Shown: in pieces, positions 13,235 through 61,245 of the stretch
Position numbering within the stretch: position 1 is the first letter of the stretch
Layout: every line of letters starts with the position of its first letter
Origin: a virus
Lineage: Duplodnaviria > Caudoviricetes
Length of the DNA stretch: 64,000 nt
Virus record (IMG/VR): IMGVR_UViG_3300021426_000004
Coordinates: 32,001-96,000 of that record
Direction: 5' to 3' (one strand)
The notes under the pieces: model-generated
The model's database searches: none
Seen by the model: the letters and a program-made list of their open reading frames with translations, nothing else
What the model was told of the DNA's origin: nothing
Made by a program: the position numbers and the translations under genes

Positions 13235-13270
13235 GTTGTTCGCTCCTGTTTCTGCGAACTTCCCTTGATG

Positions 13271-13593: not shown

Positions 13594-13607
13594 AAGTGTA
13601 TCCTCCT

Positions 13608-14129: not shown

Positions 14130-14151
14130 ATTTTTATGATCCCCTTTCTGT

Positions 14152-14220
14152 TTATGCTGTACGTTTCCAGACGTTAACAGTCAAAGTTTCTTCGATATTC
14201 AGCATCTTCAGTTTTGCAAC
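14152..14220 (-). pseudogene. Vestigial fourth HxH-tip paralog (N- and C-terminus fused, core missing)
   Basis: Reads VAKLKMLNIEETLTVNVWKRTA*; the end matches paralog C-termini TVYMWKRVA, VVYVWQRTA and AVYGWIRTA. Confidence 0.6.
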
Positions 14221-14224
14221 TACC

Positions 14225-14998: not shown

Positions 14999-15011
14999 GA
15001 TCACACCTCCT

Positions 15012-15770
15012 TTATGCTGTTCTTTGCCATACATATACAACCAGATATGGAGGCATAGTATTAAGTGTTTTAGCTGTTCCGGTGAAACTGTGATCGTGCC
15101 CTCCGCCGCCACCTTTATTTCCAATAGAACCAGCAGCGGTAATCGAGTGTGTATGATTAGCACTATTGTTCGTTGAGTTTCTGCTTGTGCTTGTATTTGA
15201 GCCGGTGTGTGTATGTCCATTGCCGGAACCGTTGCTATTTGTATTACCTCCGGCTCCACCAGCCCAGTCACCGTTCAAAGCCAGACAAGAACCACTGTTT
15301 CTTGCATGTGTATGGTCGACTTTCCATCCAGACGATCCATAACCATGATTATGAGAAGGTGATGTAGATGATGATAAAGCTGTGCTTGATGTAGTGGTAG
15401 CGTAATATTCTGTGTACGTATGTGTATGACCAGCAGATTGATTGCCAGATGTCACTTCAGATCCTGTAAAACTATGATTGTGGCTCGGTATTTCATCCGT
15501 TGTAAGTGTATGGCTTCCTACAGTTCCAGCAGGTGTATAGCTCACTGAAGCAGCGCCTCCTGTAGAACCTGATACAGTGTTGTTATCTGCCATGTACAGC
15601 ATTCTGTCTTTTAGACGTGTCCATGTTCCTCCAAATAATGGAGCCGGATCAACATTTGCAGTGTTAATATAAATAGAACCGACAGGATAAATCGTATCAA
15701 ATACAACGCCGTCTGTTCCGTTGAACGTATATAATGTACCGTTCACATCAACATGTTTAATTCTTGACAT
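15012..15770 (-). CDS. Tail fibre tip / gp10-C-like protein with HxH repeats, paralog 2
   Basis: 252 aa; IYPVGSIY, HxH motifs, MPPYLVVYVWQRTA. Confidence 0.8.
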   Translation of the reverse strand: MSRIKHVDVNGTLYTFNGTDGVVFDTIYPVGSIYINTANVDPAPLFGGTWTRLKDRMLYMADNNTVSGSTGGAASVSYTPAGTVGSHTLTTDEIPSHNHSFTGSEVTSGNQSAGHTHTYTEYYATTTSSTALSSSTSPSHNHGYGSSGWKVDHTHARNSGSCLALNGDWAGGAGGNTNSNGSGNGHTHTGSNTSTSRNSTNNSANHTHSITAAGSIGNKGGGGGHDHSFTGTAKTLNTMPPYLVVYVWQRTA

Positions 15771-15782
15771 ATCGATCCTCCT

Positions 15783-16532
15783 TTATGCGACCCGTTTCCA
15801 CATATAAACAGTCGTATATGGAGGCAATACATTAATTGTTGCAGCTGTGCCTGTAAAACCGTGGTTATGTGCATTTCCACTACCATTGTTTCCAACCGTA
15901 CCTGAAGCTGTGAAACTATGAGTATGGTTAGCGCTTATTCCGTTAGTAGTTCTTGTCGTGCTTGTATTAGCTCCGCTATGCGTATGCGAGTTTCCGGAAC
16001 CAGCACCGCTTGTCGAACCACCGACATCACCGGAAGTACTATGTGCGTGAACACCATAGTATCCGGAGGTATCATCATAAACTCCCCAATAGTCATAGAA
16101 ACTATGAGCGTGACTACCGATTTGAGCAACGGTTATTGTATGAGCTCCGGTTGTCGTAGCATAATAATCTGTTATTGTATGATAGTGGTTAGCGCTTTGT
16201 GTTCCGGATGTTACTGCTGTTCCTGTGAAGCTATGATTATGAGAAGGAATTTCATCGATAGTTAATGTATGGTCACCAACAGTTCCGGAAGGAGTATATG
16301 AAATAGATGCAGCTCCGCCTGTTGTTCCTGCAACATATGTGTCACCTGCTCCTAAAAGAAAAACATCCATTATTCTTTCCCAGGTTCCGCCGAACATAAT
16401 GTCAGGATCAACAAGTCTATTGTTCATATATACAGAACCAACAGGATATATTTCTAATAGTGTTGGGGTTTCTTCTCCTCCGAAATCCAACAGGTGACCA
16501 TTTTCATCCAGAAGAGGAATCTTCGTAAGCAT
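15783..16532 (-). CDS. Tail fibre tip / gp10-C-like protein with HxH repeats, paralog 1
   Basis: 249 aa; IYPVGSVY, HxH motifs, LPPYTTVYMWKRVA. Confidence 0.8.
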   Translation of the reverse strand: MLTKIPLLDENGHLLDFGGEETPTLLEIYPVGSVYMNNRLVDPDIMFGGTWERIMDVFLLGAGDTYVAGTTGGAASISYTPSGTVGDHTLTIDEIPSHNHSFTGTAVTSGTQSANHYHTITDYYATTTGAHTITVAQIGSHAHSFYDYWGVYDDTSGYYGVHAHSTSGDVGGSTSGAGSGNSHTHSGANTSTTRTTNGISANHTHSFTASGTVGNNGSGNAHNHGFTGTAATINVLPPYTTVYMWKRVA

Positions 16533-27753: not shown

Positions 27754-27794
27754 GTAAAAGGAGAGAGGAGCAGTAAAGCTCCTCTCTCCTTTAC
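27754..27794 (-). terminator. Hairpin downstream of TMP (terminator or 5' stabiliser of the dit transcript)
   Basis: 14-bp stem AAGGAGAGAGGAGC/GCTCCTCTCTCCTT. Confidence 0.6.
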
Positions 27795-27809
27795 GGTCAT
27801 TTTCGAAAG
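27785..27809 (-). promoter_or_regulatory. 25-bp repeated motif copy 1 (candidate late promoter) upstream of dit
   Basis: Minus strand CTTTCGAAAATGACCGTAAAGGAGA; near-identical copies at 47052 and 58304. Confidence 0.6.
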
Positions 27810-36800: not shown

Positions 36801-39800
36801 TAAACCCTTGTTATATATTTCATCTTTCGATGCTTGAGTTATTCCGAGTTTTAATTTTGCAGCATCGATTTGATTTTGATCAAACTGATTTAAGGATTCG
36901 TTGCTTAACAAATGTTCTGCCTGAGAAAGCCGAGATGTCAATTCTGTTCCGCTTATAAGTCCTCGTTCAAACAAATCTTTAGCGTCGACTTTAGCATTGT
37001 TAATCTGTTCAATAAAAGAAAGCCTATTTTTTGCTAAGTCCATTGGCTTTGCGGCTTCTTTATCAACCATCGCTGTTAAAGAATTGAATGTATTTCCGAG
37101 AAGTTCTGTTGCAGATCCTTGTAATTGTTTAATATACTGTTGAACAAATGGTTCGTTTAGTTTCTCTTGTTGAGTAGCTGCATCCAAATTTTTTGTCATT
37201 GCTTCAACTTCTGAAACTTTTAAATCCATTTCCTCTTCTTGTTTTTTTCTAAGATCTTGCGTAGCTTGCAATCTGGATGTTGTTTTTTCTCTTGCAGTTT
37301 CAAGTCTTTCAGCAGCAAGTTTATCGTTTCCTTCTTTTATAGCACTGCTAATAGTAAAGAATTCATCGCTAGAAGCTAATTCTGGATGTCTGTTGAGAAG
37401 TTTTGTTCTTTCTCTTTTAGCAATTCCTTTTTCTTTTGTAGTCAAACCCGAGGAATTAATAGCATCAGTATATCCTTGAATACGATCTAATATATCTTTT
37501 TCTTCTTTGAGTTCTCGTTCTTGACTTTTTAAACTGTTTATGCGACCAGATGCATCTTCTATGTCTTGGTTTCGTTCGTCTATTCTTTCTGATAAATAAT
37601 CTTTATCTCTTCGAATATTATTAAATCTTTCCTGTACTTTATCATAAGATTCAACTAAAGCTCGACCGGCTTTTGTTCCGCTGTTTCCTGCAATGGACCT
37701 AAATATATCTTCTCCAAAGTTTTCAGTGTCCAGCACAACTGCTTGTGAAAGGCCAAGATCCAAATTGCTCATTGCTGCATCATATCGAGCTTGTAAGTCC
37801 TTTGCCTGAGCTGTATTACCAGCAATTTCCTCTTGTTTGGATTGCTCAAGAAGTAAGTTTGCTTGATTATACTTTGATCTCCATATTACATCGTCTGGAG
37901 TCCTTTTATCTCTTTCTCTTGTTCTTTTGTTAACAAAACTTTGAATTTCTTCATCTGCTTCAATTGCTTCATTATATCTGTCGTGCAACCATAAAGCATC
38001 TGTTATACTTCCTGTATTAAATTTTCCGCTTTTAGAACTTCCTTTTCTGTTAACAATTTGATCTGCAACACTTTCCCTAATATCTCCAAACATGTTTTCA
38101 CGGAGAAATTTAGCTGCATCAAGCACGTCTCCGATAGATGTATTTTCTTTTGCAAGTTGTTGAATTCTATTAATCGACCTAGATACATTATCATCACTTA
38201 AACTTAAATCAGCATCAGAAAAAATCATTTTTCGAATTCGATTCTGGTATGGTTCTATAATGCCAACTTCACCAATGTTTACTCCATTTTTTTGAAGTTG
38301 ACTATCATAAATAGCCTGCTGTACTCTCCATTTTTTCCAATCGTCGTCTGATGGTTTCCAATAATTCTTAATATCTGCCATCACTTCGCGTTGGTCATCT
38401 TTTCTGCTTCTGAATCTTAAGTCGTATGAACCAGTCATACCTACGTCTTCATCTGTTGTTAATTTTTTCCCTTTACCTGTTATTATCATATTTCCAGCAG
38501 CAGTTTTTGGACCTTTTCCTACGTCGCTTGATTCTATGCCAACGACTTGCCAATCGCTTTCTGGATAAATGCTTAATAATCCTTCTCCACCTAAAAATTG
38601 ACGAAGAGCGTAATATCTGTCGTTTAAGTTTGTTCCACTTGTTTTTAACGTTTGGCGTTCAGCATCTGTTAATCCTCTGCTTCCTGCAGGAAGTTTAAAT
38701 CCTTTTCCTTGCTTTTTTAAACCAAGATACTCGTCAAAAACATCAAGAGCTTCTTTTTGTGCTGCTTTCAGCTGATCTTCTGACAATGGTGCTGAAGCAT
38801 TCATTCGCAGTTGCATAAAGTGCTCAATTGCTGTATGTGCAGCTTGCCCAATTTCTGTACTAGCAAGCGTTGAATTATTTTCACGTCCAGTAATTAAGTC
38901 TTCCATAAAGTTTGCTGGATTATATGCAAATTTCGACAATGAGCTAAAAGAAAGTCTTGGCATATTGTCAATCATTCTTTTTTTCTCATCTACAGTCAAC
39001 AAATTAAATGACTCCAAAAGTCTAGCAAGTTTAGTATTCTGAGTGGGTTCACTCATTTCTTCAAACGCTTTAGGAGTTGTTTTTGCAGATAATAACTTTG
39101 TAAAGTCTAAACCTCCGACAACGTTTGGCAACTTCATTGCTTCTAATGTTGTGAAAATCGAATCATTTACGCCTTCATCGTGCATATGCGATGCAGACAT
39201 TGCCATACCAGACAATGCGTTTTGAATAACCTTGCCGCCTAATCTATTAACTACTCTTTCGGCTATTGCTCTGTTTGATCCTTTTTCGTTAAATGCTTTA
39301 CCTTGTCTGTCTCTTTCGTTTTTCACTAACGCTGCTTGTTCATCGATTGCAGCAGAGCGCAATTCTCCTAATTTAGCAATTGTTTCTTCGTCTATGGCAA
39401 GATAATCTGCATTTAAATATCCCATCCAAGTATCACGTAACGCAGATTGCATACGACCTAAAGCAGTTGATTCATCCTTTTTCCCTAACACAGAATCAAA
39501 AATATAATTCCAGTCATAATTTTTATTAATATCTACGCCTCTTTGTTTAGCAAAATACCGAGAAAGCATCATAGAACGTACATTGCTAGACATTGTATTA
39601 AACGGAAGATTGGTTGACCAGAATTTAGCGCCAAGCAAACCATCGCTGCCTTTAGCGCTTTCGATTAAATTTGGAATGGATACGTTTCCATATTTATCTC
39701 TGTTTTTATCGACAATATGGAAAAACTCCGTAAATGCTCTGTATTTTGATAACACTTCTAATTGTTCCGGAGTTGTATCCATTTCTATACCAGTCTTATT

Positions 39801-42800
39801 TCTAATAGAATTAACACTGTATTGTGATTCTGCAGCAGACATAGCTTTTAAAACAGTTGAATCCCAAGGAACTTGCATTGCGTTACGAATAGTTGCGTCA
39901 GGACCACCCATAAAATACCCATTCTGCATTGCTGGAACGAGTACTTTCATAACATCTATACCTTTATTTAAATCAATATCATCTGCACCAAAGACGTTAT
40001 GTTTAAATTCTTCTTTTATTTTATCTGCTTCAGCTTGAGAAAGGCCTCTTTCGTCTATTTTCTTTATACCTAAATCATAAGCTTTTTTCAAAATCTCTGC
40101 CGCTGCAACTTTTTCGCCTTTTTTATTTTTACCTGTATATGCAAGACCAATCAAATCCATGACGTCTCCATCGAAATCAGCGTCTTGCAGAAGCTGCATA
40201 ACTGGAGATGAAGGTGAAATATAAAAAGCATCCGGATCAAAACCAGAATCTGAAAGATACTTTTGAATTGCTTTTTCACGTTGAGAGTTTCCGACAGATA
40301 TATTTTTAACTTCTCTTGCAGAACGTGTCGTTGCAGGATACCGACTAATTCCTACAACTGAAGCCATGAGCTTCTGAAAAGCAATTTCGTCATCATCCAT
40401 AGTCAGCAAACCAAGTGTTTTTCTTTGGTCTTCAGACATTTGAGAGTACAGTGTATCGTAATATGATTTTGTTTCTCCGTCTTTAATTATGCCTGTGCCG
40501 CTTTCGTTTATGTTTTTTAATCCAGATATAATTGCATTAAAGAAATATGGTTGAGCCATTGCCCTGGAAGTTTCTAAGGATCTAGGTAAAATTGTATCTC
40601 CTTGCGAAATTCTCGTAAGCATTCCAAGACGGAATCCTTGTATTTCGTCCTGAATGCGCTTATCTCCCATGACAGCACCGTTTGTTGCTAATATTAAATC
40701 TCTCATTTCTGAGTTACCAGCAAAGACGGTATCAAGAGCTCCCTGCATTGTTCCAACACGGGCATACTCGTCTAAAAATGCTCGTGTTGTCATTTCGACA
40801 AATTCCGGAGAATTACCAAGAATCTGCGATGCTTGTCTGGACATCCAGTGGATTCCGCCTTGAGCATCTTTCATTGTTTTGTTTGCAAAAATTTTTCCAC
40901 CTGAACGTTCAATTTCTTCTGCAATATTCTTTTTAATTTCTTCTGTAGGAAGTAGTTTTCCATTATCATCTTTATATTTGATTCCGGCGTTTTTTACATC
41001 GGACATACTAAGTAAAAGATCCAAATCGTCTGTTATTTCTTCTACTCTTCCGTCAGGACCGATTGTTTTTACGGAGCCACCAAAGGGAGCCAGAAAACTT
41101 GATAAATTCAATGGGCTTAAGGCTGTTTTAACACCTGGCATGCGTGCTTGAAATCCTCTTGGAACATACTTGCTGTTTATGTAGCTTGTTCCGTTCATAC
41201 CAGACCCGCCAATTTCTGAAGGTGTTTGTCCAAATTTTGCGGCATCTTCAAGATCAAACAGTCCAATTTTTAAGTTCTTTGGCAGTTTGGTGCCAAATAA
41301 ATCTTGAATGCTTTCGCCAGATGTTGCAGGTTTACTCGCGTATTCTAGCGTTTTTGCTGCTTTATTAAATGCTTCGTCTCCGACGAAGTGCAAATTTTTT
41401 AGTCCGCCCCAAAAAACACTTTTATCTCTTTCTCCTGTTTCTTGATTTATAACAGGCGCAATGGCATTATATAAAGGATCAGCAACAAACTCCAAACCTA
41501 ATCCTTTATGTGCTCGCGAAAACGTATAATGTGTTTGTTTTCCGTGAGGAGACTTTGTAAGTCCTTCGTCAATGTATTTCGCATATTGTTGCATTAAATC
41601 GTTTCTTGTTTTTTCATCAAGACCTGGATCTGCAAGTCGCGGATCAACTTGAAGATAAACAATATCATCAATTGCATCGTTATTATTCGGCATCTTACCA
41701 GTTTTACGATGTCTAAATATGTTTTCCAGATGCAAACTATGGTCAATAGACATATAACGATCATCTCTGTCTGATTGACCGTAAAACTTTGTTCTATCTC
41801 TATTTAAATCAACACCGGCTTGTAAATCAGATAAAGTATAATTTGCAACTTCGTATCGTTTAATGTTTGGAGAAAACGGTATTTTTGCCTCTGTGTCACT
41901 AAATTGATTTAATGGAATATTTGATACTTTTGCTCCACGATTAGGCGTGAGCCAACTGAAATTATCGGATAGAATGCGTGCTGCATTCATATTACCTAAA
42001 AAAGGTTTATTGTTTTTTCTAGCGATTCTATCCCAAAATTGTTTATCATTAACATCTGTAATGCCATACATCGGCATACCTTTTGCAGAAGAAATGATCG
42101 CATCATATAACTCGCTGGAAAGGTTGTTGATTAACCCCCGGGTTAGTCCATTCCTCATTCCAATCGTTCCGTTTAATCGAACAGCTACTCCCGATTTTTC
42201 AGCAGCTGACAAAAAGTAAGGATTGGTTTTAAGTAAATTTTCAACTATAGCCTTTTCTTTGTTTGTTAAAGCTTCGTTGCTGTTTGGCTCGGATATAGCG
42301 CCTTTTGCCGCGTGAAAATTTTGAAATTGAGATGGAAGCATATTTGCAAAGCTATCAAAAAGATGTGCTTGTTTTTCAGATCCTCTTGATATTTGCGACA
42401 TAAAACCTTTACGTTGTGTTTGGTCTGTTCCTTGGAACATTAATATTTCTGACAAAGCATCTGCTGCTTTTGAAGTTCTTGACATTCCAAGTTGTTCAAA
42501 AATACCATTATCAAAAAGTTTATTTTTTATTCCTGCTTTAAAAGAAGCTGTATCCATCAGTGTTGTAGCAGATCTTTGAAAATCAGCAACTTGTGTTACC
42601 AATGCACGCATATTTGGCATTAAATTGGTTGCAGTTTTCAATAAACTCTGGCCTGCTTTTTTCCCGCCAACAGAAGACATTAAAGTAGATGAAGCAGTAA
42701 CAAATGAACGCATTTCATTTATTGTTGCTTCAATTCCTCTGCGAAGCATTTCTCTTTCAGCGTACAAGTCACTTAATTGCTTTTCTGAAAAAATAGGTGA

Positions 42801-45547: not shown

Positions 45548-46171
45548 TTACTTCTTGAAGTAAGCGGTGCTGTACGCACCCTCGTCGTTACGCTTGGCGT
45601 CCAGAGCCGTTAATTCGAACTGGAACGTTGCAGCACTCTTATACGATGTGTCCATACCAGGAATCGTAGTAATACGAGCACGGAACACTTTGACCACATA
45701 GTAGCCAACAATAGCGCTTTCGGTGCAGTCATCGCCAGAGCCGTAGACCGGCCAAATAGCAGAACACTCACCGATAGCGGATTCCTTATTGGTGACGACG
45801 GCTTCATACGCTTCCTGCGTATAAGCATACACCACATCCACAAAATCAATATCTTCATCAGCAGAGAAAGTAATTTCCTTGCCGTTGATCAGATAATGAC
45901 CAGTGGTAACAGTACCGCTCTGAGTCGTAATAGGCTCCATGCCATCAATAAAGATACTACCTTCGATAGGAACCTGCAGCAGTTCAATCTTATGATTTGC
46001 ATCGGGCGTATGACGCTCAGTTGTGTCGATCTGATAGTTGCTGTTCTTTTTATACTGCGTCTTATTCGCCATAGCAAACAGATCAGCGTCGAACTGTCCA
46101 CATGTAAAATTCATCGTGAACGTAGAGTTGCCAGGAATAACAGCAACAGGGAACAGGGACCAACCAGCATT
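45548..46171 (-). CDS. Major tail (tube) protein, exon 2
   Basis: Begins AAT GCT GGT TGG right after the intron's terminal G; spliced product is 254 aa (..ETIDI|NAGWSLFP..); C-terminal SYKSAATFQFELTALD. Confidence 0.8.
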   Translation of the reverse strand, partial: NAGWSLFPVAVIPGNSTFTMNFTCGQFDADLFAMANKTQYKKNSNYQIDTTERHTPDANHKIELLQVPIEGSIFIDGMEPITTQSGTVTTGHYLINGKEITFSADEDIDFVDVVYAYTQEAYEAVVTNKESAIGECSAIWPVYGSGDDCTESAIVGYYVVKVFRARITTIPGMDTSYKSAATFQFELTALDAKRNDEGAYSTAYFKK

Positions 46172-46332
46172 CATTTGGTCTTTGCTTTTTGTTCAGTGTA
46201 GTTCGCTAAGCTACACCCGCTTTATTCAAGCTGCTTTATGTTTCCATAAAGATCAGATCATATCTTACGCATATTCTGCGTCTCTCCATTTCAGCCTGCT
46301 TAGGCTTACGTCTTTCGACTGATCGTTAGAGT

Positions 46333-47007
46333 TTACACACGTTTAAAATGATATTTTTTTGCTCGAATATTGTTTTTTATTGATTGATACACAGATCCTC
46401 TGGGAAGATTCATTTCTTTTTCTGCGGCTAGCTGAGAATCATAAATACATCCAGTTTCTATACATTGAACTTTGGTTGATTTATGATTGTTTGCGCCCAT
46501 CATACTTGGACGTTTATTGTGCCGACATGCATCTAAAGCAGCTAAGGAGTTCGGATTTTTTCCAGCTCGTATATTTCCTTGACGTATTTTTTCTTTTGTT
46601 TTATCTGACAAATGTTTTCCTTTACGAGAAGCAACGCTTGCCTCGATAGCTTTTTCAGGACGTTTATTCCAAAAAGGATTGAGATTTCCTTTTAAGCCCC
46701 TATTGTTATATCCGCCTTCGGCAAAATTATACCCATAGTCTCTGTTTGTTGTTTGAAGCTTTTTAATTAACATTTTTTCTGTATTAGAAGCTTCGTCTTT
46801 AGTTAAATTCGATGCAAAAATTTCATGATCAAAATTATCCCAACCATATTTTTCAATCGCACTATTGAAATGCCAATTATAATTATATCCTTTTCCATTT
46901 TTCCATCTATTGTTAGGATTTGTTTTTTTAGACATTCCAACATATATTTTTCCATTAATCTTGTTTATATGTATATAAACATAATATGGTCCATTTTCTA
47001 TAATCAT
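46333..47007 (-). CDS. GIY-YIG family homing endonuclease with NUMOD-type DNA-binding tail
   Basis: 224 aa; YYVYIHINKINGKIYVG, GYNFAEGG, KGKHLSDKTKEKI, VQCIETGCIYDS. Confidence 0.88.
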   Translation of the reverse strand: MIIENGPYYVYIHINKINGKIYVGMSKKTNPNNRWKNGKGYNYNWHFNSAIEKYGWDNFDHEIFASNLTKDEASNTEKMLIKKLQTTNRDYGYNFAEGGYNNRGLKGNLNPFWNKRPEKAIEASVASRKGKHLSDKTKEKIRQGNIRAGKNPNSLAALDACRHNKRPSMMGANNHKSTKVQCIETGCIYDSQLAAEKEMNLPRGSVYQSIKNNIRAKKYHFKRV

Positions 47008-47051
47008 TTATTACATCCTTTCGTGTGTTTTACTACGGTAGGTTGTCTTTC

Positions 47052-47076
47052 TCTCCTTTACGGTTATTTCCGAATG
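47052..47076 (-). promoter_or_regulatory. 25-bp repeated motif copy 2 (candidate late promoter) inside the intron, upstream of the endonuclease
   Basis: Minus strand CATTCGGAAATAACCGTAAAGGAGA. Confidence 0.6.
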
Positions 47077-47167
47077 TCTTCAAATGTTTGATTAAATAAT
47101 ATTTTAAAAAAGGAGAGGGAAGAGTTTCCCCGTTTAGAAGAGTTTAACGACACCAACGCTGGAATTT

Positions 47168-47308
47168 AATGTCGATTGTTTCAATGTTTGCGCTAACAGT
47201 AGCGGCCGTCAGCTCAGTAAAGGCATAAGCATGCCCATCGCACCGACGGAACACTACCTTCGGCACGTCAGCCACATAGCCCTTAAGCGCAGCATTATAG
47301 GTTGCCAT
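47168..47308 (-). CDS. Major tail (tube) protein, exon 1
   Basis: ATG 47308 with RBS GAGAGG; 47 codons MATYNAALKGYVADVPKV...ETIDI. Confidence 0.8.
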
Positions 47309-47490
47309 AGTGCATGACCTCTCTTGCAATATATTTATAACCACCATATACCTGCTCTCCCACAAGCTAATATATTTGGGTTATATCGTATTCAGAGGCC
47401 TTCAAATTACCTTTGAGACTGTATTTATTTAGCCGCCCAATGTCTCAGGCGGCATATTTTTTACTATGTTGGTTTAGAAATGCTAAACAA

Positions 47491-47955
47491 TTAGTATACC
47501 TTCATGTATCTGAAAGCTATGCTATATCGCGTATATCCAGTTACGCGAGTACCCATGTCCCAAGCACCAGCTATCCAGAAACGATATCCTGTATCTGCAA
47601 GATATCTTTCCCGTGTTAATAACTTGAATAAACGTTCAGCAATTAAATGAGTACGCATTTTTAAACGATCATCTCCGATATTGTGTAATTCACTTGTTTT
47701 TACATATATATCGAAGAGCAGCATATTCTTCGTTACATTTGGAACATCTGTTTCAGTTCCTTGTACATCAGAATATACTATTCTGCAAACTTCGTCTGTA
47801 AGAAGTTTATTTGTATATCCAGCACTAATAAAATATCTGTCTATAAATTGGATGATGTTTGTTTTTGGCGGTATCTTCATCAATGCTTTCAAATCGTAAT
47901 CAGGCCAGATTACTTTACGTATGATAGTATTCCATGCGTCTATCCAACCCATCAT
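47491..47955 (-). CDS. Putative tail terminator / completion protein
   Basis: 154 aa just before the major tail gene; LLFDIYV. Confidence 0.6.
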   Translation of the reverse strand: MMGWIDAWNTIIRKVIWPDYDLKALMKIPPKTNIIQFIDRYFISAGYTNKLLTDEVCRIVYSDVQGTETDVPNVTKNMLLFDIYVKTSELHNIGDDRLKMRTHLIAERLFKLLTRERYLADTGYRFWIAGAWDMGTRVTGYTRYSIAFRYMKVY

Positions 47956-48476
47956 GAAGTACCACCTCCTAAAATATTTGTTATTAAAGGAATAACAGCT
48001 TCTTCAGCTGCTTTGATAATTTCTTCTCTTGTAGGAATTCCACTGATTGTTAGTTTCACTTCAAGAGAATCAATTACTTGTTGTGTTGCAAGAGCTTCAT
48101 CCGGATTATCAGAGAATTCACCGGCAATAATTTGATATTGGCTTTTAACAATATTTGTAAGAAAAAATTCCAAGTCTTTTAAGTCATATGATCCATCTAT
48201 CATTCTGTCTATGACGCTTTCAATTTCACCGGGCAAAATACTGTCGATTATTTTTCTGGAATTTTCTTCTGCGTACGTTGCTTCTTCAGATCCGGCTTCG
48301 AATCTTCCGCCAGTTACAGCGGCTTTGGATTGTCTTTGTCCTTGCTGTGGAAGATTAATCATTCCACCAGTAACTTCAGGCGGTTCCATACCTTCGTCAA
48401 TTCGGTTTCTCCAAGATTCATTACCAGATGAAATTGTATAATCGGCAGTAGCAGTAAAAGACTTAATCGTAGCCAT
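47952..48476 (-). CDS. Putative neck/tail completion protein
   Basis: Likely start MATIKSF (48476); position in the head-tail joining block. Confidence 0.5.
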   Translation of the reverse strand: MATIKSFTATADYTISSGNESWRNRIDEGMEPPEVTGGMINLPQQGQRQSKAAVTGGRFEAGSEEATYAEENSRKIIDSILPGEIESVIDRMIDGSYDLKDLEFFLTNIVKSQYQIIAGEFSDNPDEALATQQVIDSLEVKLTISGIPTREEIIKAAEEAVIPLITNILGGGTS

Positions 48477-49239
48477 GTAAACCACCAGCTGCACGTTTCG
48501 CTTGAAATTTCAGTATTCCGTGTGTTTGATTAATGTCGACGCCAACTCCGTCAATATCGACGATTTCATGAGTGTTTCCGCCCCATTCAAACTTGTCTCC
48601 GATTCTTACATTTTTAGTCTGTTCATTATATTGAACAATCAAAATAGTTAAAGCTCCGGCTATGGTACCTGGCGTACCAGATACAGCTACATATTCTGGT
48701 CTTCCATCATATCGGTATGCGTTTGCTGGAATTGAATGACAAATAATTTCATGATTGCTTTCTATTCCTTTGTTATAGTTATAGCCGCTCACAACATAGC
48801 CTTCATCATTAATTGCATAACCTTCATCATCCACATACATTTTGCCATCTCTGTACACTTCAAGGTAAAGATTGCAATATACAGCACGAGATGGAATGTT
48901 GTTGCTTTCTTTGTGCCCATTCCAATCCAACAGATAAATAGTGTTGTCAGGTTCAATAACCATATCGCCTTTACGTATACCGCTTGTAAGAGAACAACGT
49001 ATATTCATGTTGTTGTCTGTATTTTCATAGCGGCTTTTAGTGGCGTCTGGATATATTTCTCCACGAATATACTTTGGTGTATATTCTTCATTTTCTTTTT
49101 CATACCAATCATGAACAAGTTCAAAGTCCATTACAGTATTCGGAATATCATGATTAAGAAAATTGTCAAAGTCAGCGGCTAATGTTTTAGGAACGAGAAA
49201 CCGCGTTCTGGATTCTTGCGGAACATACGGTATCGACAT
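48463..49239 (-). CDS. Putative head closure protein
   Basis: 258 aa; duplicated IRKGD / VRIGD beta-barrel pattern; synteny. Confidence 0.55.
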   Translation of the reverse strand: MSIPYVPQESRTRFLVPKTLAADFDNFLNHDIPNTVMDFELVHDWYEKENEEYTPKYIRGEIYPDATKSRYENTDNNMNIRCSLTSGIRKGDMVIEPDNTIYLLDWNGHKESNNIPSRAVYCNLYLEVYRDGKMYVDDEGYAINDEGYVVSGYNYNKGIESNHEIICHSIPANAYRYDGRPEYVAVSGTPGTIAGALTILIVQYNEQTKNVRIGDKFEWGGNTHEIVDIDGVGVDINQTHGILKFQAKRAAGGLHGYD

Positions 49240-53720: not shown

Positions 53721-55286
53721 CTACGACTCGTCATCCATTGATCCTTCTGGATTACTTGGCTTTGGTTCACGACCTCTTACAGCACTTTCAGGATCGGATG
53801 TGCGCTCGTCATTGTCCAATTCAGGACGTCCGACGTTTTCATTGTTATTTTGTGTATTGTAAAGCTCCCTTGGAAGCATTGTTTCATCAGTGCCATCTGT
53901 CTTTTCCTTTTGTCTCTTATCTCTTTCAACTTCAAGAGAATATCCTTGAGACTTAGACATGGTATCTGTAGAAATAACGCCTTTCTGCCATAACTCAAGA
54001 GCCTTTTCACGTAAAGCTTTCTTGCCTTCCATGGACAACGGCTGGAAATGAAATTCAGGAATATCTTTAAGGTTATATGTCCCTGGAATTTCTTCAGCAA
54101 GTCTTTTGTTGATTTTAGTCATCATGTCACAGAATTCATCACGTACAGCATTAATACGGGCTTCAGCGGTTTGTGTTGAAACCTGAGCAGAAGCAAAAGT
54201 AGAACCGTCATCAGATACACCTGTAACTAAAACAGCGCTTATTCCGCCAGCTGCAAGAATATCGTTGTTAACACCTTTATATTTATCCCATTGGAAAAGA
54301 TCGTTTAAGTCAAACTGAACAGGATTAGCAGTAGCAAGGTGATTTGTTACAGCAAGCGGTGTTCCGCTCATAGCTGAAATGAAGATTCTTCTGATTTTAC
54401 TCAACTGTTGTTCGTCAGGTAGTATGTCATTTGTTTTAGAACTTTCTCCATATTTCACATGAACAAAGCTTCGTTTGCCAATATTCAGCATCGCGTCTTC
54501 ATAACTGGAAATTAGTTCTTTCTTTGATAATGCTCTTAAGCAAGCAACAAGAAAAGGAATGGAATATCTTTGCCAACTTTCCTTTGTGCATTGCAAAACA
54601 AAAGTATTCTCAGGATTCAACTGAGCATACTGTCTGTTTTCTTTTACTGCTTTTTGAATTTCTTCTGGATAACCTTTAAGAATATAATCAATATTACTAT
54701 CCTTTACATATTTGTCCTCAACACTATATGTCTTGGCACGTATTTCGTTAATAATACTTTGACAGTCGTAATCAACAATTGGTGTACCATTGAAAGTAGT
54801 ATTACCAATTCTCCATTTGTGAATCGGAAGTGTGATCAAATCGCCATTATACAAATAGCAACAGACATTATAGTATTTCCATACTTCAAGCATGATAGCA
54901 TCTATTTTTTCTCTGAGCCGCATTCGCTTATATTGTTCTTCAAAAAGCGCATACGTCTTTTTCTTTGATCCTGTAAGATACCAGTCGGAACAAGTGGAAA
55001 ATGGAACATATACATGTTTTATAATTCCATGAACAATAGGATCTGCGTCAGTATAATAGTCAACCAGCTGATAAATACTCTGGATGTTATCCTGTTTATT
55101 ACGAAGGATGCCGACATAATCAAAATCAGCAAGCTCACCAGTAAATGTAAAGTTTGAGTTATTGAAACTTTGAATAGTAGTTTGATCTTTTTCCCGGTCT
55201 ACTCCAACAATAACTTCACGTTTCTTTTGAGGCTGTGTCTCTGCAACAGTCTCAGTACGGCCCAGAAGCCGATTAAATAAGCCCAT
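53721..55286 (-). CDS. Portal protein
   Basis: 521 aa directly after TerL; MGLFNRLLG start; C-terminal VGRP motif. Confidence 0.8.
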   Translation of the reverse strand: MGLFNRLLGRTETVAETQPQKKREVIVGVDREKDQTTIQSFNNSNFTFTGELADFDYVGILRNKQDNIQSIYQLVDYYTDADPIVHGIIKHVYVPFSTCSDWYLTGSKKKTYALFEEQYKRMRLREKIDAIMLEVWKYYNVCCYLYNGDLITLPIHKWRIGNTTFNGTPIVDYDCQSIINEIRAKTYSVEDKYVKDSNIDYILKGYPEEIQKAVKENRQYAQLNPENTFVLQCTKESWQRYSIPFLVACLRALSKKELISSYEDAMLNIGKRSFVHVKYGESSKTNDILPDEQQLSKIRRIFISAMSGTPLAVTNHLATANPVQFDLNDLFQWDKYKGVNNDILAAGGISAVLVTGVSDDGSTFASAQVSTQTAEARINAVRDEFCDMMTKINKRLAEEIPGTYNLKDIPEFHFQPLSMEGKKALREKALELWQKGVISTDTMSKSQGYSLEVERDKRQKEKTDGTDETMLPRELYNTQNNNENVGRPELDNDERTSDPESAVRGREPKPSNPEGSMDDES

Positions 55287-55304: not shown

Positions 55305-56996
55305 TTAAAATCTACCAAACGTTTTAGCAATACGTTTAGAATAAGCATCACCAAAGCCACCAGTTATGCCAACGCACACTGGTCCCCTTTGATGTTGCTT
55401 GACATTCATTTTTTCGAGTTCTGATATGTAGTCATTGCCCATAGCCAATGCTGAATATCTATCCTTATGTTGTGTTGCTTTAGGAACATCATATGTTTTA
55501 TTACCTGAAGAGCTTGTCTTTTCTACGATATTGCCCATTTCCATTTGCATAGCGTCTGCTTCAAGGAATATAGCCATTTCTTCTTTTGACATTCTTTTGG
55601 ATTCTTCAGGAATATCCAATTGTTTAGCACGCATAGTTCTTTCCTGAATGGGTAATTCAATTGTTCCTTTTTCAAAGCACACACGAAGATTTGTGTAAAT
55701 TCTCTGGTTCAGATTATTTACAGCCCGGAACGGATGCAACGTTTGTTCAGCAACAGGATTGGACAAAGGTTGATCATCCACAACAAGTGGAGGATATTCA
55801 CGACCGGACGACACATCAACCCATTCTTTATCGAAGAATCTGTCAAAGCTGTCTCCGACACCGCGAGCATCGTAAATAATTTTTTCGGTGTTTGGAAATC
55901 TGATATGATAATATTCCCTTATTATTTCTGCCAGATAATCCAAAGGCTCACCATTGAAAGTTCGTATATTCACAACTTTACGAGCAAAAGATCCATCTGA
56001 CTTTTCTGTAAATTTAATTACAACAAGGCATGTGTTATCAGAACCTTTAGCTCTTGAAGTTGCTATATCGATACAAATGATATATCTTGATTTTGAATTT
56101 TTCGGCTGTTCCATTTCTATATTTTCGAGTGTTCTGCATTTTGATGTAAGATCAAAAGGCAAAGCAGAATTGGAATTGGAACCTACGAACTTAGAACCAT
56201 ACTCTACTTGAAAGGTAAGGTCTGGCATCTTCTCTTTTTCTTTTAAGAAGAAGTCCATGTCCGTAATGCCATTCGCAGCTGCAGCACGATAATCCAAAGC
56301 ACAGGCAAAAGAACCAGGTTCACCCTTTGCCATATCTTTTAGCACTCTTATGAAGTCATCATAAAAAGTGTTTGCTTTAGGGCATGCAGATGTTGTGCAT
56401 ATAGTCTTGGAAGCATAGTCTTTAAAATTATAGTTAAAAGATATATCCCGTTTATAGTTTTTAACAGGGCCGATGACAGAATCCTGTTCTTCCTGAGGAA
56501 TTAAAGCTGTTTCATCCAATACAAGAATCTTCGCTCTGTTACCACGCATACTGTCAATGGAAAATGATTCGATATACGAACCATTCTTAAATGAACACTT
56601 GCCCTTATCTTTCGAGATCTGAACAAGGCTTCTGGCGTTCGAAGCTGAAATTTCATTTGCAAGATTAGGATTCTGATCAGAAATCAACTTTAATTTCTGA
56701 AGAACAATAGTAGCCTGTGCTGCTGTGCCTGATACAACAGCACATACCGTGCCTGGATAAAGAACGCAAGTTGCAGCACAACACAAAGCAACAAGCCATG
56801 TTTTACCGGAGCCTCTGGATTGAACGATTTTAACATCGCTCCCTCTTCCAAAGGCTCTTGCGATCACATGCTGATCTCTTGTTAGCTTGATAGGTGCAAA
56901 CATTTGTTCGATTGCAATATCAAGATGGTCTCTCCAGAAAAGTATCTGCTTTTCGGCCGCGCTGAAATTAGTGATAACTCCCGCTCTGGCTATCAT
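55305..56996 (-). CDS. terL: Terminase large subunit
   Basis: Walker A SRGSGKT, Walker B ILVLDE, nuclease motifs ICIDIA..DNT and HKDRYSA; likely start MIARAG at 56996. Confidence 0.92.
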   Translation of the reverse strand: MIARAGVITNFSAAEKQILFWRDHLDIAIEQMFAPIKLTRDQHVIARAFGRGSDVKIVQSRGSGKTWLVALCCAATCVLYPGTVCAVVSGTAAQATIVLQKLKLISDQNPNLANEISASNARSLVQISKDKGKCSFKNGSYIESFSIDSMRGNRAKILVLDETALIPQEEQDSVIGPVKNYKRDISFNYNFKDYASKTICTTSACPKANTFYDDFIRVLKDMAKGEPGSFACALDYRAAAANGITDMDFFLKEKEKMPDLTFQVEYGSKFVGSNSNSALPFDLTSKCRTLENIEMEQPKNSKSRYIICIDIATSRAKGSDNTCLVVIKFTEKSDGSFARKVVNIRTFNGEPLDYLAEIIREYYHIRFPNTEKIIYDARGVGDSFDRFFDKEWVDVSSGREYPPLVVDDQPLSNPVAEQTLHPFRAVNNLNQRIYTNLRVCFEKGTIELPIQERTMRAKQLDIPEESKRMSKEEMAIFLEADAMQMEMGNIVEKTSSSGNKTYDVPKATQHKDRYSALAMGNDYISELEKMNVKQHQRGPVCVGITGGFGDAYSKRIAKTFGRF

Positions 56997-57009
56997 ATAA
57001 ATACACTCC

Positions 57010-57924
57010 TTACATAGAATCCAGGCCAAGAGCCTCTACTATGTAAGAGAATTCCTGGATAGTTTTGTCTACATCGTCCTTATCCCAATAGACAAGTTTG
57101 TCTGCTAAAAAACCATGAGTTTCAAGATGCAAAGTAAGTTCAGACCACGAACTCATTCCTTCCTTATCTCCGGGTTTACGTTTACATGCAGCAAAGTTAC
57201 CTGTTTTCATAAGAAGGTCCAATTGAGCAATTGCATCTTTAACATCCTGTAAAGAGCATCGTCCAAGCATATAATCGTTCTGAACTTTATCCGCAAGCAA
57301 AGAAGCCTTTGCAACTTTTTTAGCCGTATCCCTAAGAGCAGTGTCAGAAAGGTTGAAATCATTCTCCAGACCACTGTAGTAATTTTCCAGATATTCAAGT
57401 TCAGACTCTTTGAATTCGCCGTTGAAAAATTCATTGTAGACTTTCAGATTTTTATCAACCTTTGTTTTCTTAGGATCAAACTCAACGATCTTACCGTTTT
57501 CTTTGGCTTCGTCATAGTCATTTGTGTTTGTGTCCGTAGAGTGATCCTCATACTTATAGTTCTGAGTTTTCTGCATTAATGCAGGCATAATAGGACACGC
57601 AATTGACTCTAATAGTACCTGTCTTCTTTCGGCGTTGGATTTTTGATATACAGAAGATTTAGCTGCTTGTATTTCTGCTTGTTTAATGGCGTTGTTCCAA
57701 ACGTTCTCGCGCCATTCTCTGTTGTTCTCCCAAAAGTATCTCCGCATCTCATCTTTGGTTCTGATCTTTGCAAGACACTGTTTACACCATTTATCCTTTT
57801 TCCCATTCTCAATCCAATCTCTATTGGAGTAAAACTGAGATAGAGGTTTTGTCTGGTTACAGTGAAAACAAAGCCGTGTCTGAGCAGGAGTCTTGCCTTT
57901 GGGTTTCGACAGTATGTATGCCAT
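57010..57924 (-). CDS. Zinc-finger protein, putative terminase small subunit
   Basis: 304 aa; CFHC...FY...WCKQC; directly upstream of terL. Confidence 0.6.
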   Translation of the reverse strand: MAYILSKPKGKTPAQTRLCFHCNQTKPLSQFYSNRDWIENGKKDKWCKQCLAKIRTKDEMRRYFWENNREWRENVWNNAIKQAEIQAAKSSVYQKSNAERRQVLLESIACPIMPALMQKTQNYKYEDHSTDTNTNDYDEAKENGKIVEFDPKKTKVDKNLKVYNEFFNGEFKESELEYLENYYSGLENDFNLSDTALRDTAKKVAKASLLADKVQNDYMLGRCSLQDVKDAIAQLDLLMKTGNFAACKRKPGDKEGMSSWSELTLHLETHGFLADKLVYWDKDDVDKTIQEFSYIVEALGLDSM

Positions 57925-58265: not shown

Positions 58266-58303
58266 AAAATAATCACTCCTAAAAAATCATAATAGGGAGT
58301 CTT

Positions 58304-58328
58304 TCTCCCTTACGGTCTTTTTCGAAAG
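58304..58328 (-). promoter_or_regulatory. 25-bp repeated motif copy 3 (candidate late promoter) at the head of the morphogenesis region
   Basis: Minus strand CTTTCGAAAAAGACCGTAAGGGAGA. Confidence 0.65.
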
Positions 58329-58516
58329 ACACGTTAAAAAGTGATAATAAATGCTGTTTATTTTTTTATAGTGTTTTGAAATGTTTACAAAATATTTTAT
58401 TAATGTCGAAGAAGATTTGATTTTAAGCATGCTTTTTTATTTCAGCGTAAAAAAAGGGGACAAGATTTATTTTTAATATACATGTCCCCTTTAAATGTTC
58501 TATTCAGAAAATTGAT

Positions 58517-58603: not shown

Positions 58604-58728
58604 ATATCTACATCCTTTTTCTTTTATTGGAATTTTCCAGCGTAAATTCCCACCCTCCCACTTGGGATGGTGAACTGCCGGGCGCTTACGAGCAAACCCG
58701 AGCAAAAAGAAAAATGGAGGAAACAAAA

Positions 58729-58917
58729 ATGAAACATTCTGATTTCGTCATCATCATAATGAAGAACTCCCATTCTGCCTATGTGCAGATGGAAAGTCGG
58801 GAGTTTGAATGCTCCCGCAATGCCGCAGAGTCCTTAATGGTTTATGCTAGAACCAATTATGCCCTAACCGGTGTAATCAGAAATGAAATTGGAGATGTTA
58901 AATACATCTTCAACTAA
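58729..58917 (+). CDS. Small early-type hypothetical protein
   Basis: Start moved to ATG 58729 (RBS GGAGG); 62 aa MKHSDFVIIIMKNS. Confidence 0.65.
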   Translation: MKHSDFVIIIMKNSHSAYVQMESREFECSRNAAESLMVYARTNYALTGVIRNEIGDVKYIFN

Positions 58918-58924
58918 TTCCAAG

Positions 58925-58952
58925 AAAGAGGTCGTCGTAAGACGACCTCTTT
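58925..58952 (+). terminator. Rho-independent terminator
   Basis: AAAGAGGTCGTC-GTAA-GACGACCTCTTTT. Confidence 0.8.
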
Positions 58953-58990
58953 TCTCTATGAACAAAAAACATAAATAGGAGGATTGAACA

Positions 58991-59332
58991 ATGTATAACA
59001 GAGAAACTGAAAAAATGTTGGAAAAAGAAGGTGTAAACACATTTGCATACGTAAGTGCATTCAAGCCCTACGTTGAATCACTAAAAATGCGGAGAGAAGC
59101 ACTCCGCAGCGGTGATGAGAGTATGTTCCGCTACGTGTTTTCTATTCCCTTTGACAGGGAAAAGCACGAAGCGCATAACATGGCGGTAAAAACAGTAACC
59201 GAACTCAACGCCAAGTGCGTTGAGCTGGGATACCAGCCAATCTTTTCTGGTGATTTACACAACCGTCAGGAGATTGGCAAATTTGCATGTGAATTTAGCG
59301 GGGAAGGCGAACTCGCTAAATTCGCAGATTAA
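58991..59332 (+). CDS. DUF3232-like protein
   Basis: 113 aa; DR..HEAHNMAV...LN..C...GY..IF.GD..NR.EIG.FA pattern. Confidence 0.5.
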   Translation: MYNRETEKMLEKEGVNTFAYVSAFKPYVESLKMRREALRSGDESMFRYVFSIPFDREKHEAHNMAVKTVTELNAKCVELGYQPIFSGDLHNRQEIGKFACEFSGEGELAKFAD

Positions 59333-59333
59333 G

Positions 59334-59361
59334 AGAGGCTCGAAAGAGCCTCTTTTTTTTT
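59334..59361 (+). terminator. Rho-independent terminator
   Basis: AGAGGCTC-GAAA-GAGCCTCT plus T-run. Confidence 0.85.
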
Positions 59362-59453
59362 ATTTTTAATGGAGTCTAACAATAGATCCACCGGGCAACA
59401 GCGGTACTGAAGCTCCAGAAGTAGTCGAACTGGAGTAGATAGAGGAGGAAACC

Positions 59454-59942
59454 ATGAAGAAGGTTTACGTCCGTTGGATTGGTGCATTCGCAGGTCGCGA
59501 ATACAGTCTGAAAGAGTCCATCTCCTTTGAAATGACTCGTAAAGACGAAGCAGCCTGCGAGCCGCTGATCAGAGCCAATCATCGTTTCTACACTGGTGTT
59601 GGTCAAATCAACCAAGTTGGTTTGATCATTCGGAACGAAGCGATCTTCAGAGAGTTTCGTTCCGACATTTGGTCCTACTACGGACAAGATACTAAGAAAA
59701 AGTATTCTGCCAGCAAGGACCAAAACCCAAAAGCTCTGTATGTTGGACGTTCTCAGAACGAATCCAACCATGCAGAAGCATGGGTAAAAATGTCGGATGC
59801 CGTAACCGGAATCGTGGTTTACGGCTCCATTTGCGAACTACGCAAAGATAAGCGTAACACGCTTCTGAACGCAGCTCGTAAATATAATCTTCCCATTTAC
59901 GATTTGAATCGTAAAGGAGAACTCGTCGAAAGGAGGTTTTAA
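59454..59942 (+). CDS. Early-type hypothetical protein
   Basis: 162 aa, RBS GAGGAGG. Confidence 0.7.
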   Translation: MKKVYVRWIGAFAGREYSLKESISFEMTRKDEAACEPLIRANHRFYTGVGQINQVGLIIRNEAIFREFRSDIWSYYGQDTKKKYSASKDQNPKALYVGRSQNESNHAEAWVKMSDAVTGIVVYGSICELRKDKRNTLLNAARKYNLPIYDLNRKGELVERRF

Positions 59943-59943
59943 G

Positions 59944-60021
59944 ATGACGAGCAACAACAAAGATCCTCCGGCTTATCTTGGCGGGCTACACCAGAGGCGC
60001 TTAACAGTACAGGTCTGCTAG
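59944..60021 (+). CDS. Possible 25-aa peptide overlapping a structured RNA
   Basis: AAGGAGG RBS, then MTSNNKDPPAYLGGLHQRRLTVQVC*. Confidence 0.35.
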   Translation: MTSNNKDPPAYLGGLHQRRLTVQVC

Positions 60022-60248
60022 ATCAATAAACAGATCTGATGAAGCTGTTAAGTTGGGTGCAAGTGCCAAACGGGCTCAGAGGAGCTCAGGCGAAACCCTG
60101 TGGCATTCTTCGGAATGGGACGTCTTTACAGGGGGTGCAGAAGCGGCTGTTACCTGACTAAAGGCTGTTAACCGCTACCGGCAACTCCGCCTGGAGAAGC
60201 CAATGGGCCAACATGGAAATGTGCTTATGACGTACATGGGGGTGTTGG
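59970..60248 (+). ncRNA. Candidate large structured RNA
   Basis: Long-range stem 59970-59985/60186-60201 enclosing several hairpins, including UUCG- and GAAA-containing loops; non-coding and visibly GC-richer than its flanks. Confidence 0.5.
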
Positions 60249-60312
60249 TGTGCAAACCAGGACATTGAAAAAAGCACGGAAAGGAGACGTGATGTAAATT
60301 GCGTGTTTTTAT

Positions 60313-60343
60313 AGAGCAGATATAATGTCTGCTCTTTTTTTTT
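60313..60343 (+). terminator. Rho-independent terminator
   Basis: AGAGCAGA...TCTGCTCT plus T-run. Confidence 0.8.
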
Positions 60344-60418
60344 ATTTTACGGCAGTTCAAAGAGGCTGCACCGAGGTCCCAACTCGGTAACAGTTAACAC
60401 CACAAGCATCGGAAGGAG

Positions 60419-60877
60419 GTGTGTAGTGTGGTGTGGACAACGTTTACCTTTGCCATCGTGGCTGTTCTGTTTATAGCCGTGGTGGCATTGGTTGGATACT
60501 TGGCTTACCGCTATTGGGAAGTAGCGGCGAGCTTGGTATTCGTCATGGTTCTTCTTGCAGGATTTATCTTCCTGCCGGGAGCAATGGCAGATCCAATTGT
60601 TGAAGGCAACATCGATCTTAATGATCGTATTGTTGTCTTCAATGAAGATGGCTCCTTTTCAACGGAGATCAGCTTTTCTGTTGAGATCGACGGATTGGAG
60701 GTCCTCCTCCCGTTGATCATAAACGGCGAACTGGTTTCTGAAGAAGAAGCTGTCGAACACTTCCTCGAAACAGGAGAACACTTGGGGATGTTCTCCTCCA
60801 TAGAGGAAGCAGAACAGTACGCCGAAGAACTGCATCTTCAGCAAGAAGAAAGATACAAAGAAAAGGAGGAATTCTAA
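60419..60877 (+). CDS. Membrane protein with two TM helices and an acidic soluble domain
   Basis: About 150 aa; GTG start probably at 60428 after GGAGG. Confidence 0.7.
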   Translation: MCSVVWTTFTFAIVAVLFIAVVALVGYLAYRYWEVAASLVFVMVLLAGFIFLPGAMADPIVEGNIDLNDRIVVFNEDGSFSTEISFSVEIDGLEVLLPLIINGELVSEEEAVEHFLETGEHLGMFSSIEEAEQYAEELHLQQEERYKEKEEF

Positions 60878-61245
60878 TGAACATTATGACCATCATTATC
60901 CTGCTGTCCCTTCTGGAGGAGCTGCCGGAGCTCCCGGAGTACATTCGCGCCAACCGCAAAGCCGCTCGGGATAACGTAATTGCCCGCAATAAGGCGATTG
61001 CCAAATCTCACAAGTGGGGTTTGTGGTATGACGAGGAACAGAGAGAAAACGGTTATCTGCATCTTGGGTGCAGCTGGAAACCCCAGCAGGTACACCATAA
61101 AAATCAGGAGGGTCGGTACGCCGAGCCTCATTTCGGTGGACATCGTCGGTTCCAGAAACAGAGTAGGGATTATTATCCCAGTTGGACAGACGAAAAATGT
61201 CGTCGCCGTGCAGACGATGCATTGAAAGATTATTTCAATTCCTAA
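60877..61245 (+). CDS. Early-type hypothetical protein
   Basis: 122 aa, TAATG coupling, RBS AGGAGG. Confidence 0.65.
   Translation: MNIMTIIILLSLLEELPELPEYIRANRKAARDNVIARNKAIAKSHKWGLWYDEEQRENGYLHLGCSWKPQQVHHKNQEGRYAEPHFGGHRRFQKQSRDYYPSWTDEKCRRRADDALKDYFNS

Follow-up and report, generated by a model that had tools for sequence, protein, structure and literature searches.

The question raised by this locus is what recognises a 25-bp motif on the minus strand, at positions 58304–58328 of the sequence analysed, ahead of the structural genes of an uncultured rumen phage, and whether the motif acts in DNA or in RNA. The source phage is represented by an IMG/VR record of 148,117 bp with direct terminal repeats (G000), and the sequence analysed, referred to here as the window, corresponds to bases 32001–96000 of this record (64,000 nucleotides). 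The genes of this phage lie on the plus strand from 1 to 21 kb, on the minus strand from 21 to 90 kb (the structural genes) and on the plus strand again from 90 to 148 kb. A nucleotide search with the candidate late-promoter region yielded no match among annotated phages, and a search of Rfam with the entire genome, including the window, at the gathering threshold, identified only tRNAs.

The preliminary description reported three minus-strand copies of the motif, at 27785–27809, 47052–47076 and 58304–58328. These copies are exact, with no mismatches (0 in 100 shuffles), and they are the only consensus matches in the window. A scan of the whole genome with both a pattern and a weight matrix, as had been suggested, revealed seven strong copies and one weak copy (Table 1); the original observation was incomplete, as there are four further strong copies on the plus strand and a degenerate one, and the conservation extends beyond 25 bp. 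The strong copies scored 41–47 bits with the weight matrix, the copy at window position 60260 scored 22 bits, and nothing else in the genome exceeded 13 bits. All seven strong copies lie outside coding sequences (six are intergenic and one is located within an intron-like insert), and every copy is co-oriented with the neighbouring or downstream genes. The motif is not exclusively late, contrary to its initial description: the four copies in the right arm head units that include a polymerase gene. A link to two early cassettes, proposed on the basis of the plus-strand core TTACGG, was rejected as due to chance: the window contains 36 occurrences of this hexamer. The degenerate copy is followed, about 25 nt further on, by a strong terminator-like hairpin at 60313–60335, and the segment 60260–60335 could yield a transcript of about 70 nt.

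Table 1. Coordinates of the motif copies and of the genes and structures discussed in the text (window positions unless otherwise indicated).
Feature	Position	Strand	Remarks
Site 1, late class	58304..58353	-	28-nt core, AnCG box and two phased T-tracts
Small stem-loop with the motif G-run as its 5' arm	58294..58310	-	Would form the 5' terminus of the late mRNA
First gene of the packaging/morphogenesis operon, 113 aa	57924..58265	-	38 nt downstream of site 1
Site 2, core-only	47052..47086	-	Keeps the TTTGAAGACA part of the palindrome class, without the palindrome
Homing endonuclease ORF, 224 aa	46333..47007	-	PHROG 314, E 3e-27; 44 nt past site 2
Site 3, core-only	27785..27809	-	Between the tape-measure gene (5057 aa) and Dit
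GC-rich 12-bp hairpin	27760..27789	-	Begins with the GGAG of site 3, followed by UUUU; -26.8 kcal/mol, z -4.4
Tape-measure protein, 5057 aa	27855..43028	-	DFDGD (part of DADFDGD) at residue 951, ~40164-40178
Degenerate eighth copy	60260..60289 (genome 92260)	+	22 bits with the weight matrix
Strong copies	genome 59786, 79053, 90305	-	Pattern and weight matrix
Strong copies beyond the window	genome 104996, 112266, 125531, 142101	+	Pattern and weight matrix
YonO orthologue, 939 aa	genome 126307-129126		Outside the window; carries DVDGD
Two-barrel paralogue, 906 aa	genome 96896-99616		Outside the window; no Pfam family above threshold
Early-arm DxDGD polymerases of relatives	G001 36786-40001; G002 58662-61103; G003 45586-48837; G004 13163-16006; L013 4766-7525		

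The three window sites do indeed precede the first morphogenesis gene, the intron endonuclease and dit, as initially claimed. Site 1, the G-run of which occupies positions 58309–58304 of the minus strand, is located between divergently oriented genes, at the start of the late operon, in which the gene for the 113-aa protein is followed by genes encoding a 304-aa protein, the large terminase (55305–57029) and the portal protein (53721–55286), all on the minus strand. Such a placement at the head of a structural unit was found in the source genome and in 19 related contigs. At site 2, the ORFs on either side of the endonuclease gene correspond to contiguous halves of a single tail-type gene that is uninterrupted, and devoid of endonuclease, in three related phages (G002, G003 and G004); the sequence containing site 2 is, thus, an intron-like insertion, about 970 bp long. 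In Rfam, no family matched this insertion, and no group I intron was recognised around the site even at E 1. The hairpin overlapping site 3 may be either the 5' hairpin of a new transcript or a terminator preventing read-through from the tape-measure gene. Beyond the window, the copy at 104996 precedes a stretch leading to a tRNA gene, that at 125531 lies ahead of a YonO-like gene and that at 142101 lies ahead of a block ending in an RNA ligase gene. At 112266, the unit fits into a gap of 55 bp and the GGAGG of the motif serves as the Shine-Dalgarno sequence of the next gene (153 aa), which places the action of the signal at or before the 5' end of the RNA.

The divergent region upstream of site 1 also contains, on the plus strand, between 58528 and 58650, five TTGGAAGA direct repeats followed by a block with the core TTTTYSAGCGTAAATT. 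This block is retained in all eight relatives, about 250–300 bp before the late motif, and position 58440 has a second, partial copy. The block does not vary in step with the main motif and is, therefore, probably read by something else; it might be a rightward promoter or an operator.

The relatives were collected in three ways: by a pattern scan of viral contigs, by protein homology with the first late gene and the polymerase as queries, and by one pattern scan of metagenomes. Comparison of the copies showed that two classes of site share a single core of about 28 bp, (G/T)NC(A/T)TTCGAAAA, followed by about three variable bases and then ACYRTAA; the contiguous conserved block ends in the G-run, as in promoters of the T7 type. 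The late class comprises 20 unique sites, each located before the orthologue of the first late gene; 8 of these sites were recovered by protein homology and are, thus, independent of the motif search. With positions counted from the first G after TAA, T-tracts occupy −42 to −40 and −32 to −30 in these sites and are followed by an AnCG box (−26 to −23); both the box and the tracts lie outside the search pattern, and the columns left free in this pattern are conserved out to about −44. The palindrome class includes 17 unique sites in eight contigs. In the source genome, it corresponds to the four plus-strand copies, which have an upstream palindrome with the consensus TTMGGTACCKAA and a TTTGRNGACA stretch, and the distance from GGTACC to TAA is 34 nt at 15 of the 17 sites and 35 nt at the other two. 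Sites 2 and 3 are core-only copies. No RNA pairing of the palindrome or of the T-tracts with the core was found, even though their spacing is exact to the base, and these two elements imply the involvement of further factors. An inverted repeat at site 1 was considered as a possible MerR-type site, and this reading was rejected because the repeat is not conserved in relatives.

Conservation in related phages, on which the preliminary description had made its proposal depend, was found for both classes. They are retained at orthologous places in related rumen phages (G001–G004, L013, L016, L018 and 12 further metagenome contigs), with divergent flanks; no copy was found in G005. The core of the late class is almost identical in G000, G003, G004 and L013. 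Positions −5 to −1 are alike in the two classes within a given genome, reading CGTAA in G000 and G003 and TATAA in G001 and G002, as would be expected if the motif were read by a phage-specific protein. A palindrome-class copy is present ahead of the YonO gene in all four of the phages carrying this gene (G000, G001, G002 and G003). At one orthologous palindrome-class site, the leaders (L012:11119-11178, G003 near 3584 and G002 near 106102) contain a hairpin followed by GTTAAATGG, and this shared feature may be a small conserved RNA element.

The sequence immediately downstream of the motif provides further insight into the position of the RNA 5' end. In minimum-energy folds of the first 36 nt, a stem-loop with the G-run as its 5' arm was obtained for 18 of the 20 late-class sites, versus a mean of 9.3 sites and a maximum of 15 when the downstream sequence was shuffled (200 trials). 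There are three start hexamers, GGGAGA, GGGAAG and GGGGAG, each matched by its own 3' arm, and at 17 of the 20 sites, exchanging the native hexamer for another gave a poorer fold. Among all the sites first collected, 5' pairing was observed in 17 of 24. The proposal that the terminal ARGGAG opens a helix at all three window sites is borne out at 58304 and 27785, but not at 47052, where the minimum-energy fold does not include it. The compensation of hexamer variants by the 3' arms implies that the RNA includes the G-run and that selection acts on a hairpin starting there. This pattern is consistent with transcripts beginning at the junction between TAA and the G-run. Only at site 3 is there a GC-rich hairpin with an adjacent U-run; the other copies have short hairpins with no U-run, or no hairpin, and the combination of hairpin and U-run typical of a terminator or antiterminator is, thus, not a general feature of the copies. 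In Firmicutes, 5'-terminal stem-loops are known to stabilise mRNA, and the late transcripts of T7 begin with a hairpin of this kind.

The motif was initially described as unlike a sigmaA promoter, and this view was upheld, as there is no fixed −35/−10 pair, with hexamers 16–18 bp apart, at any site. In a relaxed scan of all seven sites, no pair of hexamers was found at a constant position, and a consensus scan of the intergenic region upstream of site 1 found no sigma-70-like promoter on the minus strand; the closest match (9/12, at 58781–58753) lies beyond this region, inside a plus-strand ORF. We know of no Bacillus alternative-sigma consensus that the motif fits. A reading of the SPO1 gp28 type (AGGAGA, 17 nt, T-run) was rejected, as it fitted site 1 only, as judged by eye. 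The interpretation of YRTAA as a −10 box is contradicted by the position at which transcription would then start, inside the conserved hairpin. Sigma-70 regions r2, r4 and r4_2 (PF04542, PF04545 and PF08281) were absent from the six-frame translation, in which the controls were matched. A six-frame search with PF00940 gave no match, but its control also gave none, so Pfam scans of the large ORFs were used instead, and they revealed no T7-like polymerase. The preliminary description had suggested that the motif might be recognised by a phage sigma factor or by a non-virion RNA polymerase encoded outside the window; no sigma domain was found, but the genome does encode polymerases there, a 939-aa orthologue of YonO and a 906-aa paralogue.

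In total, the source genome encodes three candidate two-barrel polymerases with a DxDGD signature. The 939-aa protein matches the Pfam RdRP family (E 1.5e-12) and is 32.5% identical to YonO of SPbeta over 91% of its length (E 4e-111), with orthologues displaying 76% identity in G003, 74% in G001 and 64% in G002. Its last 90 or so residues form a tail that is basic and rich in cysteine (zinc-ribbon-like). Its stop codon is overlapped by a gene encoding a 150-aa protein (L011:16123-16575, genome 129123–129575) belonging to no Pfam family and conserved at 59–68% in G001–G003; the product of this gene, or the tail of the YonO protein, could help in promoter recognition. Upstream (L011:11175-13306, genome 124175–126306), an RVT_1 reverse transcriptase gene, the palindrome-class motif, a non-coding structured RNA of about 750 nt and the YonO gene follow each other, in an order that is syntenic in G001–G003, and the leader opens with a long-range stem of 13 bp (z −4.2). 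For the 906-aa protein, an AlphaFold model (pLDDT 84) had a fold matching QDE-1 and RDR2 (E 4e-10) and the gp64 polymerase of a Thermus phage (E 3e-3); a PDB sequence search with the 939-aa and 906-aa polymerases returned nothing useful. The third candidate, inside the window, is a putative N-terminal two-barrel polymerase module in the tape-measure protein, which would be the least likely of the three to read the motif.

These enzymes differ markedly in their conservation. The tape-measure polymerase module is only 21–24% identical in G002 and G004, versus 42–74% for the ruler part of the same proteins. No counterpart of the 906-aa protein was detectable by BLAST in G001–G004, and the early-arm DxDGD proteins of the relatives are 21–25% identical to each other. 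Early-arm polymerases of this kind are found at the same map position in every relative while being almost unrecognisable from one to the next, and this position is, thus, a hypervariable polymerase slot. By contrast, the motif becomes progressively altered as YonO identity falls, from 76 through 74, 64 and 61 to 50%: diverged copies were found in a Ruminococcus bin (L051, YonO 61% identical), on the same strand as the YonO gene, and in an Acutalibacteraceae bin (L052, 50%), 100 nt before this gene, and the other 78 genome loci, in which the YonO matches are 33–37% identical, yielded none. The most likely reader of the motif is, therefore, YonO, the only one of the three enzymes conserved in step with it, in line with its late-gene role in SPbeta and on the basis of a comparison of four YonO-bearing phages and fragments, the other two enzymes being divergent between phages sharing the motif. 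Two other strand-specific intergenic signatures were detected in the source genome, T-tract cassettes at 91–94 kb and AAGC-N8-ATTCGC hairpins at 102–120 kb, the second of which is absent from relatives; these signatures could serve the other two polymerases. In the Ruminococcus bin, the YonO gene is interrupted after its SAGQ motif (from about 5690–6000 of L051 onward), and the YonO match extends over 4.0 kb for about 760 residues, suggesting an intron-like insertion in the polymerase gene.

Taken together, these results suggest that the motif is probably a promoter for the YonO-type polymerase of 939 aa, with transcription beginning in the purine run and the RNA protected by a 5' hairpin. In this model, the enzyme, alone or with a helper, would bind the contiguous block of about 28 bp and begin RNA synthesis at the purine run directly after TAA, at GGGAGA in the late class and AGGAGA in the other class. 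The initial bases would usually fold into a 5'-terminal stem-loop, protecting the mRNA against decay from its 5' end. The same core would be tuned by two upstream contexts: phased T-tracts with the AnCG box at the head of the packaging operon, and a GGTACC-centred palindrome of 12–14 bp, with its centre near −34.5 and probably bound by a dimeric regulator, marking the four right-arm units. Within the 69-kb late arm, the core-only copies would allow transcription to start again ahead of the intron-borne endonuclease and of Dit. The weak point of this model is the presence of a palindrome-class copy before the YonO gene itself, which implies that the first YonO molecules would be made by read-through, from the hairpin-type site at 120038 for example, with positive feedback thereafter; otherwise, the palindrome class would have to be read by something else. 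A wider interpretation, in which this would be the first sequence-defined family of YonO-type promoters, palindrome-gated or with T-tracts, within a cascade of three polymerases each with its own signals, and in which an intron has adopted one of these promoters, seems to us evenly balanced between right and wrong.

Three other explanations were considered. The promoter might be read by the 906-aa early-arm enzyme or by the enzyme fused to the tape-measure protein and carried in the virion, YonO being a product of this transcription rather than its agent. The palindrome-class copy before YonO in G000–G003 would fit an earlier polymerase switching YonO on, the fold matches of the 906-aa protein make it a credible two-barrel polymerase and the tape-measure protein carries DFDGD; nevertheless, this reading seems unlikely, given the hypervariability of both enzymes between phages with a nearly identical motif, the existence of two other signatures that could serve them and the unusual role that a virion enzyme driving structural genes would represent. 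The host RNA polymerase might also be responsible, together with an unrecognised phage sigma-like factor or an activator binding the palindrome and the core. Many phages of Firmicutes express their late genes with the host polymerase and a small activator, divergent late sigma factors, such as gp55 of T4, can escape the Pfam sigma-70 models, and the GGTACC palindrome resembles the site of a dimeric regulator. However, the sigma-70 regions were absent when the controls matched, the best-conserved block would be the "spacer" of a promoter with no −35/−10 pair at a fixed position, and the G-run must be present in the RNA, which rules out YRTAA as a −10 box followed by a start 6–8 nt further on; we consider this explanation rather improbable.

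The remaining explanation is that the motif acts in RNA, as an endoribonuclease or antitermination site creating or protecting a 5' end at the TAA/G-run junction. The hairpin compensation shows that the transcript is under selection starting at the G-run, in agreement with such a role, site 3 overlaps a terminator-like hairpin, and GGAG is the target of the T4 endoribonuclease RegB. Nevertheless, the operon downstream of site 1 has no other conserved promoter-like block close upstream, the palindrome and T-tracts are spaced to the exact base yet do not pair with the core, and there is neither an Rfam match nor a covarying structure in the 25 nt upstream of the junction, all of which makes an action in RNA improbable. 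Transcription by the YonO-type polymerase is the reading favoured here.

YonO is a single chain of 100 kDa performing the work of a multi-subunit RNA polymerase, and the way in which it finds its promoters was left open in 2017. The consensus described here renders promoter recognition testable, with natural variants at −5 to −1 (CGTAA, TATAA and CATAA) and three start hexamers. Starting points for such studies include matched polymerases with 50–100% identity, together with candidates for a helper gene and an operator, and a compact, orthogonal pair of polymerase and promoter for Firmicutes would be a useful tool.

The promoters of T7, T3 and SP6 (classes II and III) consist of a block of about 23–28 bp ending in TA(A)A/GGGAGA, with initiation at the G-run, a core shared between classes and a 5' stem-loop. 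The last 8–9 bases of the rumen phage motif resemble the T3/T7 initiation region, and here too there are two classes with one core; given that no gene for a T7-type polymerase is detectable, this resemblance is convergent or fortuitous. The T4 introns of td and sunY contain internal promoters for the expression of I-TevI and I-TevII by the host polymerase and phage factors. Site 2 is similar, in that a phage promoter would be carried in a mobile insertion just ahead of a homing-endonuclease ORF, but the T4 promoters are used by the host polymerase. The insertion here has no Rfam group I match.

The system closest in terms of its polymerase is that of SPbeta, the late operon of which is transcribed by YonO (PMC5467207). 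A single YonO start has been mapped in this phage, and the promoter sequence was stated as still to be determined (Forrest et al. 2017, PMC5467207); no later definition of a promoter for the YonO family was found in the searchable literature. The two phages have orthologous polymerases, a similar size and layout, a late operon occupying one arm, a YomG-like tail protein, and a start, mapped in SPbeta and proposed here, just ahead of the late genes, in a G-rich region; they differ in that one start has been mapped in SPbeta, whereas there are 7–8 sites in two classes here. The published start (chromosome position 2225998) was placed in our analysis only by bracketing with the published primer-extension primers, which delimit a stretch in the yonN-yonK gap. 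No clear similarity to the motif was found between these primers (L050), although both sequences have an A/T stretch followed by GGG. The bracketed stretch contains one of two tandem copies of a different 20-nt repeat ending in ATGA/GGG, the other copy lying just upstream of the forward primer. The repeat has the form TAAT-N2-TCATTTATGARGGT, and its two copies are 157 bp apart, one of them inside the primer-extension window. In addition, CATAAGGGAGA is found just past the yonO stop codon of SPbeta, and some of the late-class sites described here have an identical 3' end (the repeats and this element are located on the minus strand of L050, at about 4610–4585, 4470–4440 and 5240–5226).

The closest precedent in kind is provided by the promoters of the Thermus phage P23-45, in which each of the two two-barrel polymerases has a motif of its own, lying within −30 to +1 (Chaban et al. 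2024, PMC10770324). In both phages, the polymerases are single-chain two-barrel enzymes, one of which is fused to the tape-measure protein; the motifs of P23-45 lie directly upstream of its mapped starts, and their presence among relatives tracks that of the polymerase (PMC10770324). The two systems display no sequence likeness, and the enzymes of P23-45 serve pre-early and early genes, whereas the motif described here serves late and right-arm genes; the P23-45 starts were mapped, whereas those proposed here are predicted from sequence, and the proposed reader here is a YonO orthologue. A promoter specific to a phage polymerase is, thus, a signal of a known kind, and the best-supported interpretation is that the motif would be such a promoter for an enzyme family for which no published promoter was found.
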